Below the pieces are notes generated by a model, which made no database searches, was not told the DNA's origin, and saw only the letters and a program-made list of their open reading frames with translations. The translations under genes were made by a program, and so were the position numbers. From assembly GCA_021773305.1 (NCBI GenBank), contig JAJFKH010000073.1, positions 1,120 through 65,119 on the forward strand: DNA of 64,000 nucleotides. The letters are read 5' to 3'. Position 1 is the first letter of the stretch. Every line of letters starts with the position of its first letter. This document shows, in pieces, positions 44,201 to 50,941 of the stretch. Origin of the DNA: Gammaproteobacteria bacterium. Lineage in GTDB: Bacteria > Pseudomonadota > Gammaproteobacteria > UBA1113.

Positions 44201-45382
44201 ATGGGGAAGGAAGAAAAAAATAAATCAAATGACGACAATCTCTTTAGAAAAAAGGCTCTAAATGAGATTGCTTCACCTGAAAAATTAGATAATTTGATTA
44301 ATATTATTACCCCTAAATATTGGATCACGTTAATTGCATTTTTCATATTAACAACGTTTTTTATCTTATGGAGTTTTTTTGGGAATATTCCTCAGCGTGT
44401 TCATGGTTCCTCTCTTTTAATTAAACCGGGTGGTTTGGTTAATGTGACCGCCAGTGAGGATGGTCGGTTGCTAGAGTTATATGTTCGCGAAGGTGACTCT
44501 GTTAAAAAAGGTGACGTTATTGCTAAGGTTGAGCAACAGGAAATTTTCAATGAAATTGAACTATTAAAGTCATTAAAAGAAGATTTAAAAGTAAAAAACA
44601 CAAGAATACAGGCTGTTCAAGATGAAATAAGAAAAGGTTTGCAGATGATTGCAAAAGAATTAGATGTTGTACTAAAAGCTGAAAAAAATCTATTGAAATC
44701 CGGGATTATTTCTTTACCCAAAGCAATTGCAACTGAACAAAAGCTAAAAGACACACTCAATAGTATTCGGATGTTAGAGTTAGCAAATTTAGAAGCTCAA
44801 GAACAGTTGAGCAAAACAGAACGTAAGTTGAGCATCCTGCTTGGAAGGTATGAATATGCAACAAAAGTGGTAAGTTTACATAATGGTATAGTGACTGAAG
44901 TAAAAGCAGGGCCTGGAGATAATATCACTGAAATTATGCCCATTGTTAGCATTGAACCTGTCATGGATAAGGATGAAAAAATTAGGGTTATCGTATTTGT
45001 CCCTGGTGTATTTGGTAAAAAAATAAAACCTGATATGCGTGCTTTGATTATGCCTGGAACTGTAAGCAAAGAAGAATATGGTGCATTGGAAGGAAAGGTG
45101 ACAAATGTTTCTATTTATCCAGCCAGCGTGCCCGCCATGATGAAAATATTACGTAATAAAACATTGGTTGATGAGCTTTTGCATAAAGGAGTTGCCTATG
45201 AGGTTGAAGTGAGTCTTCTTGAGGATCCAAATACAGTGAGTGGGTATAAATGGACATCTGTTGACGGGCCACCACTAAAACTACAAAGTGGTACTCTTGG
45301 CGAAGCTGAAATTACACTCAAGCGGCGTAAGCCCATAACGTTATTATTGCCTTATATTAAAAAGGTGACGGGTTTTGACTAA
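44201..45382 (+). CDS. HlyD-family membrane fusion protein of an NHLP/Nif11-type bacteriocin export system (TIGR03794-like)
   Basis: LFRKKALNEIASPEKLDNLINIITPKYWITLIAFFIL signature N-terminus of the NHLM bacteriocin-system secretion protein; single TM, coiled-coil, C-terminal beta domain; AGGAAC RBS. Confidence 0.8.
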   Translation: MGKEEKNKSNDDNLFRKKALNEIASPEKLDNLINIITPKYWITLIAFFILTTFFILWSFFGNIPQRVHGSSLLIKPGGLVNVTASEDGRLLELYVREGDSVKKGDVIAKVEQQEIFNEIELLKSLKEDLKVKNTRIQAVQDEIRKGLQMIAKELDVVLKAEKNLLKSGIISLPKAIATEQKLKDTLNSIRMLELANLEAQEQLSKTERKLSILLGRYEYATKVVSLHNGIVTEVKAGPGDNITEIMPIVSIEPVMDKDEKIRVIVFVPGVFGKKIKPDMRALIMPGTVSKEEYGALEGKVTNVSIYPASVPAMMKILRNKTLVDELLHKGVAYEVEVSLLEDPNTVSGYKWTSVDGPPLKLQSGTLGEAEITLKRRKPITLLLPYIKKVTGFD

Positions 45383-47552
45383 TAAACAAAAATGGCGTTA
45401 TAAAACGCCAGTAATTTTACAAATGGAAGTTGTAGAGTGCGGGGCAGCAGCACTCGCTAGCGTGATGGCATTTTATGGAAAACATATTTCTTTAGAAGAA
45501 ATACGGGTTCAGGCAGGCGTGTCTAGAGATGGTTGCAGCGCGAGCAATCTATATAAATCAGCCATTCATTATGGATTTGATTGCGAAGCATTTAGCATTA
45601 CGATGGCATCTCTTAATGAAATAGAATTACCCTGCATCATCCATTGGGGATTTAATCATTTTGTGGTATTAGAAAAAGTAACAGCTAAAGAAATGCATAT
45701 TAATGATCCTGCCTCTGGACATCGCATCATTCAAAAAGATGAATTTGAGAAGAAATTTACGGGTGTTGTGCTTACATTAACGCCAAGCAAAGATTTTCAC
45801 AAAGAAGGAGTTCCACCAAATGTGCTTAAAGCACTGGTTCGCCGCCTAAGTGGCACAAAAAGTGCAATTGTGTACTTGTTTTTAATTGGTTTGTTGTTGA
45901 TTATACCGGGATTATTAATGCCGATATTTACAAAAATCTTTATTGATGAAGTCTTAATTCATCAGCTACATTCATGGTTTTTCCCTCTTGCCATTGGTAT
46001 GGTTATGACTGCATTTGCTCGTGGATTTTTTAGTTGGCTGGAGAGTTTTGTCTTATTAAGGATAAGCACAAAAATTTCAATTACCACCACAGGAAAGTTT
46101 CTTTGGCATATATTACATTTGCCAATGCGCTTTTTTGAACAGCGCAGAGCTGGAGATATTACATACAGAGTGTCACTGAATGATGAAGTTGCGGATCTGA
46201 TTGCGAGTGATTTTGCCAATTCCTTATTAAGCATTGTGATGCTAGTTTTCTATTTTTTACTAATGTGCTATTACAGTTGGATATTAGCGGTTATAACCTT
46301 GTTTATCGCGATGCTCAATTTTACAGTCATAAAAATCACAGCAAAACATCGAGCCAACCTTAGTCTTTGTGCCGTGAATGAGCAAGGAAAATTTATGGGA
46401 AGCTCTGCTAATGGACTCGCTCGAATTGAAACATTAAAAGCATCAGGACGTGAAGATGAATTTTTTTCTAAATGGGCAGGACAACTTGCAAATTTAGTGC
46501 GTGCAACTCAACGAATTGAAATTCTTGATCTTATTGTTTCGAATATTTCGATCATACTGTCTAGCATTAACACAATGATAATATTGTGTTTAGGCGCTTA
46601 TTTTATTATGTTAGGTCAATTGTCTGTTGGTATGTTAGTTGCTATACAGAGCTTGGCTGCTAGTTTTCTCTTGCCATTGGCTAATCTCACAAACTTTGTT
46701 TCCAGTTTGCAAGAATTAAGTGGTAATATGATGCGTTTAGATGATGTTCAAAATCATAAAGAAGCATTTATTTTTTCAGCAGTTCCTGAAACGCCTGAAT
46801 CTACAGAGGTTAATCAAAAATTAACGGGCGCGGTTGAATTGCAAAACATTTCTTTTGGTTACAATGTATTAGAAGAGCCTTTGATAAAAAACTTCAATTT
46901 ATATGTAAAGCCTGGACAACGAATTGCTATTGTTGGATCCTCAGGCTGTGGTAAATCAACAGTATCTAAATTATTATTACAACTGTATGAGCCATGGCAA
47001 GGTAAAATATTATTTGATGGACAAGAGGCAAAATACATCGATAGAGATTTGTTCTCAAATTCTGTTGCAATGGTAGAGCAAAGTATTTTCTTATTTGAAG
47101 GAACTGTAAAAGATAATGTTACATTATGGAATCCGTATATTGCTGAGCACGATGTTGTAGAGGCAATGAAAGATATGCAAATTCATGATGAAGTTTGTCA
47201 GCGAGAAAAAGGTCTTCATTGCTATATGAGTGAAGGTGGCAGTAACTTTAGTGGTGGGCAACGTCAGCGTTTAGAAATGGCAAGAGCCTTAGCGATCAAT
47301 CCAACAATTCTTATTTTAGATGAGGCAACTAGTGCATTAGATCCGGTGACAGAAGAAAAAGTCGATAGTCAAATTCGAAAGCGTGGTTGTACAACAATTA
47401 TTATCGCACAACGGTTAAGTACTATTATTGATTGTGATGAAATTATTGTTATTGACAAAGGTGAAATCAAGCAAAGAGGTACACATAAAGAATTAGTTAA
47501 TGAAAAAGGATTATATGAAAAACTAATTATGTCAGGACATCGAGAAACATGA
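45375..47552 (+). CDS. bacteriocin-export ABC transporter with N-terminal C39 double-glycine peptidase domain (TIGR03796-like)
   Basis: YKTPVILQMEVVECGAAALASVMAFYGKHISLEEIRVQAGVSRDGCSASNLYKSA...HWGFNHFVVLEKV (C39 Cys/His); 6-TM domain; NBD with GSSGCGKST, FSGGQRQRLEMARA, ILILDEATSALD; overlaps HlyD gene by 8 nt. Confidence 0.85.
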   Translation: MTNKQKWRYKTPVILQMEVVECGAAALASVMAFYGKHISLEEIRVQAGVSRDGCSASNLYKSAIHYGFDCEAFSITMASLNEIELPCIIHWGFNHFVVLEKVTAKEMHINDPASGHRIIQKDEFEKKFTGVVLTLTPSKDFHKEGVPPNVLKALVRRLSGTKSAIVYLFLIGLLLIIPGLLMPIFTKIFIDEVLIHQLHSWFFPLAIGMVMTAFARGFFSWLESFVLLRISTKISITTTGKFLWHILHLPMRFFEQRRAGDITYRVSLNDEVADLIASDFANSLLSIVMLVFYFLLMCYYSWILAVITLFIAMLNFTVIKITAKHRANLSLCAVNEQGKFMGSSANGLARIETLKASGREDEFFSKWAGQLANLVRATQRIEILDLIVSNISIILSSINTMIILCLGAYFIMLGQLSVGMLVAIQSLAASFLLPLANLTNFVSSLQELSGNMMRLDDVQNHKEAFIFSAVPETPESTEVNQKLTGAVELQNISFGYNVLEEPLIKNFNLYVKPGQRIAIVGSSGCGKSTVSKLLLQLYEPWQGKILFDGQEAKYIDRDLFSNSVAMVEQSIFLFEGTVKDNVTLWNPYIAEHDVVEAMKDMQIHDEVCQREKGLHCYMSEGGSNFSGGQRQRLEMARALAINPTILILDEATSALDPVTEEKVDSQIRKRGCTTIIIAQRLSTIIDCDEIIVIDKGEIKQRGTHKELVNEKGLYEKLIMSGHRET

Positions 47553-50679: not shown

Positions 50680-50713
50680 TATATGCGATCCCCCACAATT
50701 TTCCTAAAACCGC

Positions 50714-50941
50714 CTATTTCTTTTTATAGCCACCACTACCTTTAGGTGGTTTTCCAGGCCTTTGTTGTGTTGTTGAGGTGCTTGGAGAAGGACTTGGAGT
50801 TGCTGTTGGAGCTGGACTCGGGCTTGCCGTTGGAGCTGGCCCCGGAGCTGCTGTTGGAGAAGGGCTGGTCGCCGATGTCGGCGCAACACCGCCCGTGACC
50901 GATTTCAAGTCTTTTGGGTCTATTTTCTTTTTCTTAGCCAT
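50714..50941 (-). CDS. 75-aa precursor peptide with double-glycine (GG) leader and Pro/Thr/Ser/Ala-rich core
   Basis: MAKKKKIDPKDLKSVTGG|VAPTSATSPSPTAAPGPAPTASPSPAPTATPSPSPSTSTTQQRPGKPPKGSGGYKKK; leader fits the class II GG consensus (L-x2-V-x-GG); strong GAGGAG RBS 7 nt upstream; own promoter-like and terminator elements; adjacent to C39-ABC export genes. Confidence 0.7.
   Translation of the reverse strand: MAKKKKIDPKDLKSVTGGVAPTSATSPSPTAAPGPAPTASPSPAPTATPSPSPSTSTTQQRPGKPPKGSGGYKKK

Follow-up and report, generated by a model that had tools for sequence, protein, structure and literature searches.

What does a three-gene peptide exporter of the NHLP/Nif11 type carry when no NHLP or Nif11 precursor is encoded beside it? 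This question is raised by a 64,000-nt stretch of gammaproteobacterial DNA (hereafter the window; positions 1,120 to 65,119 of contig JAJFKH010000073.1, assembly GCA_021773305.1), in which genes for an HlyD-like adaptor and two ATP-binding cassette (ABC) transporters lie next to a small gene for a 75-aa peptide with a double-glycine (GG) leader. We propose, with a probability of roughly 0.58, that positions 44017-51226 form a self-contained, acquired cassette for the processing and export of a GG peptide, together with its probable single cargo, the 75-aa peptide. The transporter is a divergent member of a well-known and automatically annotated family and adds little by itself; what is new here is the 7.2-kb low-GC insertion that contains it, a peptide gene of island-like composition, a basic leader considered together with the C39 peptidase residues of the exporter, and an orphan core rich in Pro, Ser, Thr and Ala.

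A complete three-gene exporter

The three transporter genes are adjacent and co-oriented on the plus strand. The first (44201..45382) encodes a 393-aa HlyD-like periplasmic adaptor, a membrane fusion protein of the NHLP-system type. The second (45375..47552) encodes a 725-aa peptidase-containing ABC transporter (PCAT), here called ABC1, with a C39 domain at ~aa 10-140 followed by a transmembrane domain (TMD) and a nucleotide-binding domain (NBD), and the third (47549..50461) a second ABC transporter of 970 aa, here called ABC2. When scored against the NCBIfam models, all three proteins exceeded the curated equivalog cut-offs: the adaptor reached 278.9 bits against TIGR03794 (cut-off 156.2), ABC1 948.4 bits against TIGR03796 (853.3) and ABC2 823.7 bits against TIGR03797 (709.4), the last match starting only at residue 285 of the protein. 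Both the FRK..L..L.SPE.LD N-terminus and the DPNTVSGYKW motif conserved in the adaptor family are present. The adaptor and ABC1 genes overlap by 8 nt, ABC1 starting at a TTG (with AAGGTG ahead of it) before the stop of the adaptor gene, and the ABC1 and ABC2 genes by 4 nt, stop and start sharing the sequence ATGA. As each of the three models is matched end to end, there is no sign of pseudogenisation, and judged by its sequence the trio is a complete, intact, translationally coupled TIGR03794/03796/03797 export system. In this respect the preliminary description of the locus, which had been made from the letters alone, was borne out: it had recognized the NHLP/Nif11-type signature, the SPEKLD-type N-terminus of the adaptor and the coupling of the genes, and the readings it had named as fatal to its proposal, a generic HlyB/HlyD pair without a C39 domain or a decayed relic, do not agree with the full-length genes and the C39 match found here. 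The system is nonetheless divergent; the closest homologue of the adaptor is only 35% identical, and all four proteins, the trio and the 75-aa peptide, were singletons in the protein collection searched. Compared with most homologues from Gram-negative bacteria and cyanobacteria, the adaptor lacks ~30-40 residues in its coiled-coil (alpha-hairpin) region, which brings it closer in length to the Paenibacillus and Cohnella versions (319-321 aa overall).

ABC1 matched Peptidase_C39 (PF03412) with an E-value of 8e-38, in agreement with the GG-peptidase domain that had been read into this protein. In an alignment of its C39 domain with those of 21 orthologues, the oxyanion Gln (Q16) and the catalytic residues C22, H95 and D111 were invariant, and the domain would by sequence be catalytically competent. 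The H-loop His of ABC1 is replaced by Gln (AQRL), a substitution that recurred in only 2 of 33 orthologues compared. In ABC2 the signature region reads LSGGQYQK where the family has LSGGQRQR. Since the H-loop Gln of ABC1 and this signature would share one ATP site in a head-to-tail heterodimer, the two substitutions hint that an ABC1/ABC2 heterodimer might have one degenerate site.

ABC2 has a composite layout, with a CRP/cyclic nucleotide monophosphate (cNMP)-type sensor fold (~aa 1-130), a second beta-rich region and a long helix (~aa 146-266), a non-catalytic C39-like domain (~aa 285-400) and TMD plus NBD (~aa 415-970). Residues 1-285 gave no Pfam match even at E=10, PF00027 included; 26 family members of ABC2 yielded a single weak PF00027 match (E=0.0055), and the ABC2 family profile matched the Crp structure 4ev0 with an E-value of only 0.43. 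Because these Pfam and PDB sequence searches were essentially negative, the question was settled by structure prediction, in which the N-terminus is modelled with the beta-roll plus C-helix fold of CRP/FNR proteins, that is, as a CRP/cNMP-type fold. The cNMP-binding-like N-terminus of the preliminary description is therefore upheld as a predicted fold with a putative ligand, though not as a PF00027 sequence match. In the C39-like part, Pro occupies the position of the catalytic His (P356), as it does in 45 of 46 family members, which makes this a non-catalytic C39-like domain; a profile-profile comparison of the region with C39 was too weak for use (E=0.027, probability 1.8%). The ABC2 N-terminus is ~25% identical to its nearest relatives, and the nearest named relatives of the protein come from metagenome-assembled genomes (MAGs) of Bacillota and Desulfobacteraceae, not from Legionella.

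An insertion between gltX and tRNA-Ala

The trio, the peptide gene and their non-coding flanks make up a 7.2-kb block (44017..51226) that extends from the gltX stop to the tRNA-Ala promoter. In the closest relative (L047), whose GltX is 80% identical and whose gene order is the same as that of window positions 29947-44003, the promoter and start of the tRNA-Ala gene follow gltX after 19 nt and align to window positions 51227-51300 with 86% identity. We also inspected 69 more distant relatives with sequence downstream of gltX; in 34 of them a tRNA-Ala(GGC) gene lies within 600 nt after gltX, accompanied in 20 by tRNA-Glu(TTC), and none has the trio. As relatives have the gltX-tRNA-Ala arrangement without the trio, 44017-51226 is an insertion in this lineage. 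The block also differs from its surroundings in composition, with a GC content of 0.35 against ~0.41 in the flanks and a GC content at third codon positions (GC3) of 0.26-0.28 in the trio genes, and only 12% of the Pro, Ala, Thr and Ser codons of the trio end in C, whereas 23 host genes give a figure of 26% (Fisher P=9e-10). From these comparisons, the best explanation is that a single indel brought in the trio together with the peptide gene and that both were horizontally acquired. We found no flanking direct or att-like repeats at the island borders and no integrase, and a plasmid search returned only distant megaplasmid homologues, none of them from Legionella. The gltX alignment with the closest relative ends at 44003, beyond which the final codons of the two genes are different, so that the insertion may have remodelled the 3' end of gltX. 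At the left edge of the insertion, a perfect hairpin (GCCTCTTTTGCAAAAGAGGC, 44024-44047) without a T-tract directly follows the gltX stop.

A candidate cargo gene in the same block

The peptide gene lies on the minus strand (50714..50941), convergent with the trio and not divergent from it as had first been described, and encodes a candidate cargo precursor of 75 aa with an 18-aa GG leader (MAKKKKIDPKDLKSVTGG) and a 57-aa core ending in a cationic tail (QQRPGKPPKGSGGYKKK). NCBI annotation also calls this product. It remains, as originally claimed, the only cargo candidate in the window: neither NHLP (TIGR03793) nor Nif11 (TIGR03798) precursors were found in the 64 kb, the peptide itself has no NCBIfam match, and a tblastn search of the window with six NHLP/Nif11 leaders gave a best E-value of only 0.08. 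The co-occurrence of such precursors with the trio is an association and not a requirement of the trio protein models. The other intergenic open reading frames (ORFs) of the island are at most 39 aa long or overlap other features.

The gene is furnished with plausible expression signals on its own strand. A Shine-Dalgarno sequence (GGAGA, 50948..50952, minus strand) stands 6 nt 5' of the ATG, and a putative extended -10 promoter element (TGCTATAAT, 50993..51001, minus strand), recognized by consensus match only, lies 51 nt 5' of the ATG in a spacer of 27% GC. On its 3' side a hairpin followed by a U-rich tract (50640..50679, minus strand) is a likely intrinsic terminator; the RNA fold of 50630-50713 on this strand has -25.8 kcal/mol (z=-2.2), and a simple terminator scan did not list the hairpin. 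GC content at the three codon positions is 0.50/0.71/0.36, the gene being GC-rich because of the amino-acid composition in its own frame and its third position being AT-biased like those of the island genes. By the same codon measure as above, 5% of its Pro, Ala, Thr and Ser codons end in C, a share compatible with that of the trio (P=0.12) but not with that of the host genes (P=0.0006). Within the core-coding part, Tandem Repeats Finder identified an in-frame 24-nt tandem repeat of ~3.4 copies (50782..50863, minus strand; also our direct-repeat family D1), which encodes octapeptide units of the form (A/S)P(S/T)... and has a period that is a multiple of three. On these sequence features the 75-aa ORF looks like a real, independently expressed gene.

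Leader, core and peptidase

GG leaders follow the consensus L(-12)xxxE(-8)L(-7)xxxxGG, with a helix that spans positions -10 to -4 (PMC6959990), and recognition by C39 domains is determined at leader positions -4, -7 and -12 (PMC6363468, PMC6959990). In the leader of the 75-aa peptide, I(-12), D(-8), L(-7) and V(-4) precede the GG. It matches the consensus L(-12)xxxE(-8)L(-7)xxxxG(-2)G(-1) with conservative substitutions at -12 and -8 and a hydrophobic residue at -4, fitting the form L(-12)xxxE(-8)L(-7)xx[V/I](-4)xGG as I/D/L/V, and its Pro at -10 occupies the N-cap position of the recognition helix. A scan of the 128,000 six-frame residues of the window with the strict leader consensus found only two sites, the other one inside ClpB. 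When all 64,043 window sites were ranked with a position-specific scoring matrix (PSSM) trained on 33 genuine GG cargo sites from the relatives' loci, the leader site came 4th, at 9.5 bits. There is no in-frame start upstream of the ATG, so the leader is at most 18 aa long and far shorter than the 70-100 aa of NHLP/Nif11 leaders, as the preliminary description had observed. This length lies within the normal range for classical PCAT substrates; the PCAT1 substrate CtA, for instance, has a 24-aa leader on a 66-aa cargo (PMC6959990). A C39 domain whose usual substrates have long leaders was shown to need no more than the last 13-14 leader residues (Bobeica et al.; PMC6363468). The 57-aa core consists to 74% of Pro, Ser, Thr and Ala, 19 of its residues being Ser or Thr; it has a net charge of +6 with its cationic tail, contains no Asp or Glu and, as had been stated, no Cys. 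A literature search for Pro/Ser/Thr-rich GG cargo returned nothing relevant.

The C39 domain of ABC1 is itself unusual. Its positions 55/64/71/74/81 read SIESN, with a charge of -1 that includes a K71-to-E reversal. In all 21 relatives, which have acidic cargo leaders, this patch is basic, with charges from +1 to +5. A C39 domain without the basic patch fits a basic cognate leader such as the one described here, and we regard this as a lead towards a leader/peptidase pair that may have been re-tuned.

Based on these features, we infer a route in which the 75-aa peptide is the cargo, ABC1 and ABC2 form a heterodimer, a ligand regulates export and a TolC protein is used. Transcription of the precursor gene would start at a promoter of its own and run towards the trio. 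The short leader would then use I-12, L-7 and V-4 to dock on the ABC1 peptidase domain, with the helix running from P-10. Cys22 and His95 would then cut after Gly18, and the presumably disordered cationic 57-aa core would be pumped through ABC1/ABC2 and the HlyD-like adaptor into a TolC-like channel encoded elsewhere. ABC2 would add its non-catalytic C39-like domain and its sensor domain, the latter probably gating export in response to a small ligand, as for HetC (see below). Most simply, the secreted product would be an unmodified peptide, either microcin-like or a signalling peptide.

Points against the cargo assignment and alternative explanations

Several observations weigh against reading the block as an exporter with its own cargo. 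To begin with the gene itself, no homologue of the 75-aa peptide was found among 5.8 billion proteins, and metagenome contigs scanned with a back-translated pattern of the leader gave no match either, so the peptide lacks the backing of conservation. The repeat region is of low complexity and open in several frames, with four overlapping ORFs (50-75 aa) on both strands over the same 200 nt. The 75-aa ORF could on this evidence be a non-coding, repeat-bearing stretch of biased composition, and the trio an orphan or decaying acquisition; the 24-nt tandem repeat and the non-canonical H-loop of ABC1 would suit such an account. We hold it to be very unlikely, as the GC3 of 0.36 singles out this frame and matches the AT-rich third positions of the island genes, the GGAGA, the extended -10 and the hairpin with its U-tract are well placed for this strand only, and the repeat keeps a period that is a multiple of three, while all three transporter genes are full-length with their motifs intact.

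The leader raises a different doubt. Its 9.5 bits are below the leave-one-out scores of all 33 genuine family sites (minimum 12.3, median 32), because the acidic ELS(D/E) half of the motif is missing; the leader is basic instead, with a net charge of +4. Moreover, the search for cargo precursors covered this window of ~64 kb rather than the whole genome, and many NHLP/Nif11 precursors are encoded far from their transporters as scattered paralogues (PMC2887384, PMC3140520). The trio might thus be functional with its real cargo encoded elsewhere in the genome, the 75-aa ORF being an unrelated small gene that happens to hold a GG motif. This deserves serious consideration, but we judge it unlikely: the insertion that holds the trio also holds the peptide gene, and the two have a codon bias in common; the strict consensus is very rare by chance (the two matches in 128,000 residues); and a cassette transferred without cargo would be idle unless substrates were present in the recipient beforehand. 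In addition, the basic patch that accompanies acidic leaders has been lost from this C39 domain, which argues against canonical NHLP/Nif11 leaders as substrates.

Inspection of the ORFs in the island identified no immunity gene, modification enzyme or outer-membrane factor. No outer-membrane efflux protein (OEP)/TolC gene was found in the island or among those window genes that were scanned, and the operon of the nearest relative includes an OEP gene that the island does not have. The missing modification enzyme bears on a further possibility, that the peptide is the precursor of a peptide made by the ribosome and modified after translation (RiPP), altered before export at its Ser/Thr residues or C-terminus by enzymes encoded outside the island. 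Transporters of this family are typically tied to RiPP pathways (PMC2887384), the core offers 19 Ser/Thr residues, and a candidate enzyme is at hand: 93 nt beyond tRNA-Glu lies a gene for a 383-aa YheC/D-like ATP-grasp protein (51536-52687, minus strand; PF14398 E=4e-32, with a weak tubulin-tyrosine-ligase match). This gene was probably not co-acquired, because its composition is host-like (GC3 0.42, against 0.26-0.28 in the trio) and it lies beyond the ancestral tRNA pair. As the core is without Cys, Asp and Glu, lanthionine and thiazole formation and graspetide ester or amide links through acidic side chains would not be available to it, and we give modification before export very little credence.

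Two further points concern the exporter of the proposed cassette. The Gln at the H-loop His position of ABC1 might reduce its ATPase activity. The co-variation of charge between leader and C39 domain is not significant among the relatives alone (rho=-0.46, P=0.22), and the sites compared were picked because the window protein deviates there; for both reasons we keep the co-variation as a lead only. Carried further, this lead would make leader and peptidase a charge-inverted pair, a basic leader and a patch-less C39 domain, that exports a disordered, mucin-like, cationic non-bacteriocin, with export gated by the ABC2 sensor. In a Legionellales-like bacterium associated with amoebae, such a peptide could serve to coat the surface, to adhere or to act on the host. 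We consider such a scenario distinctly improbable as a whole; if true, it would make the peptide a PCAT cargo of a new functional type and illustrate the re-tuning of leader specificity after horizontal transfer.

Comparison with known systems

The NHLP/Nif11-associated three-gene export system was described by Haft, Basu and Mitchell in 2010 (PMC2887384). The window trio resembles it in gene order, in the overlaps of the genes, in the catalytic C39 domain of ABC1 and in the long N-terminal extension of ABC2. It differs in its leader, 18 aa long and basic against the 70-100 aa, acidic-ended leaders of that system, in an adaptor that is at most 35% identical, in the loss of the basic C39 patch and in the H-loop Gln of ABC1.

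For a broader comparison we used 46 related loci with the same three genes, recovered with a narrow search pattern; they share with the window trio all four of the features of likeness just listed. Genuine NHLP/Nif11 precursors occur at some of them (L014 and L017 pass TIGR03793, L041 passes TIGR03798), and many, mostly cyanobacterial, have flanking peptides that are devoid of an NHLP/Nif11 domain and combine a GG leader of 22-43 aa with a Cys-free core; the genes for these precursors frequently lie on the strand opposite to the trio. Of 290 precursors near cyanobacterial clusters of this kind, Wang, Fewer and Sivonen (2011) had placed 150 outside both NHLP and N11P (PMC3140520). The new cargo class announced in the preliminary description must therefore be withdrawn, as short leaders outside the NHLP/Nif11 families and Cys-free cores are common in our 46 loci and already published. 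Cyanobacterial bacteriocin clusters of this kind (PMC3140520; L016, L026, L029-L038, L042) are like the window locus in that the trio stands beside short non-NHLP/N11P GG peptides, often encoded on the opposite strand, and their cores are mostly Cys-free and sometimes of low complexity. Their leaders, however, keep the acidic pattern (E)EL(S/T)(D/E)x(D/E)LxxVxGG, and several precursors per locus are usual, whereas the window has a single precursor, basic in its leader and with Pro/Ser/Thr/Ala making up 74% of its core.

At the locus of the nearest adaptor homologue (L049), the operon includes genes for a TolC-like OEP and a periplasmic binding protein. Downstream of the trio of this locus, beside an extracytoplasmic function sigma factor gene, a 194-aa zf-HC2 anti-sigma-like protein is encoded (14401-14985, plus strand), in which a cleavage site (GELSDEALAKVAGG) that agrees perfectly with the family type lies ~24 residues before the C-terminus; this protein may be a 'leader' that derives from a regulator, or else a cargo whose leader is very long.

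Among gammaproteobacteria, the closest parallels by description are LB2SS and LB3SS, putative bacteriocin type I secretion systems of the NHLP type with two ABC transporters, which Brown et al. (2020) found in 9 and 11 of 45 Legionella species (20-24%), respectively, counting components with at least 40% identity to those of L. taurinensis; they have a phylogenetic tie to a Nostoc NHLP-type transporter, and no substrate was identified for them (PMC6959600). Like the window trio, they combine two ABC transporters, one with a C39 domain, with a membrane fusion protein; the window host is outside the genus Legionella. Class II microcin systems, such as MccV/CvaAB, consist of a precursor, an immunity protein, a PCAT, a membrane fusion protein and TolC (PMC9746304). 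Like the window locus they occur in gammaproteobacteria and combine a short GG signal with a core of ~50-90 aa that is rich in small residues and, here presumably, unmodified; both also have a membrane fusion protein and a PCAT whose catalytic triad is present. The window differs from them in having no immunity gene candidate and an extra second ABC transporter, which place it outside the canonical class II microcin family, though it may work like one, and ABC1 is below the generic bacteriocin-ABC cut-off (TIGR01193, 371 vs 524), being an NHLP-type PCAT instead. A precedent for the predicted sensor of ABC2 is the long-type PCAT HetC from Nostoc PCC 7120, which needs its N-terminal cNMP-type domain, to which ppGpp binds, in order to function (PMC10986499). 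Both are GG-peptide ABC exporters with a CRP/cNMP-type sensor fold on the N-terminal side of a C39 or C39-like domain, but the sensor of HetC is part of the catalytically active PCAT itself, whereas here it is carried by the partner, ABC2, with its inactive C39-like domain.

Host and genomic neighbourhood

The preliminary description had placed the trio in a host-associated, Legionellales-like genome in which such systems are not expected. The named GltX relatives come from MAGs labelled Gammaproteobacteria or Legionellales and are only ~62-64% identical, so that by these matches the host may be called "Legionellales-like" with a loose placement; the window holds no sign of host association, and that part of the description is not established. 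One GltX match (P0128, 62% identical) is labelled 'Kaarinaea lacus' (Nostocales cyanobacterium) and derives from a 7-kb contig of a cyanobacterial culture assembly; the contig is probably a gammaproteobacterial contaminant and of no use for taxonomy. The surprise at finding the system in Legionellales was likewise misplaced, given LB2SS and LB3SS in Legionella (PMC6959600). Our narrow-pattern genome scan contained no Legionellales, and we considered this as support for the system being unexpected; we rejected it as a sensitivity artefact in view of the same report, the scan having missed the Legionella systems because its search pattern was narrow.

Apart from the island, the window contains ordinary housekeeping genes and several large orphan ORFs. 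Large orphan ORFs are typical of effector-rich intracellular bacteria. Those without a Pfam or NCBIfam match are 14004-19664 (minus strand, 1,886 aa), 31391-33736 (plus, 781 aa), 52745-54304 (minus, 519 aa, seemingly rich in coiled-coil-like sequence) and 11880-13394 (plus, 504 aa). The only mobile-element-type gene among those scanned encodes a YhgA-like putative transposase (PF04754, E=1e-42) at 6919-7905 on the plus strand, far from the island. On the other side of gltX, a small DUF6750 membrane protein (41090-41404, plus strand) is encoded upstream of a GDPD phosphodiesterase gene and gltX, in a synteny shared by the window and its two closest relatives, L047 and L048.

Significance

The proposed cassette is compact, evidently mobile and easy to clone, with one exporter and one candidate cargo. 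It could show whether a leader as short as 18 aa and not acidic is acceptable to three-gene exporters of the NHLP type, whether the charge of the C39 surface patch sets leader specificity, and what role a secreted, repeat-containing peptide rich in Pro, Ser, Thr and Ala plays in an uncultured gammaproteobacterium. A cargo validated here would also guide the search for substrates of the similarly built LB2SS and LB3SS systems of Legionella.

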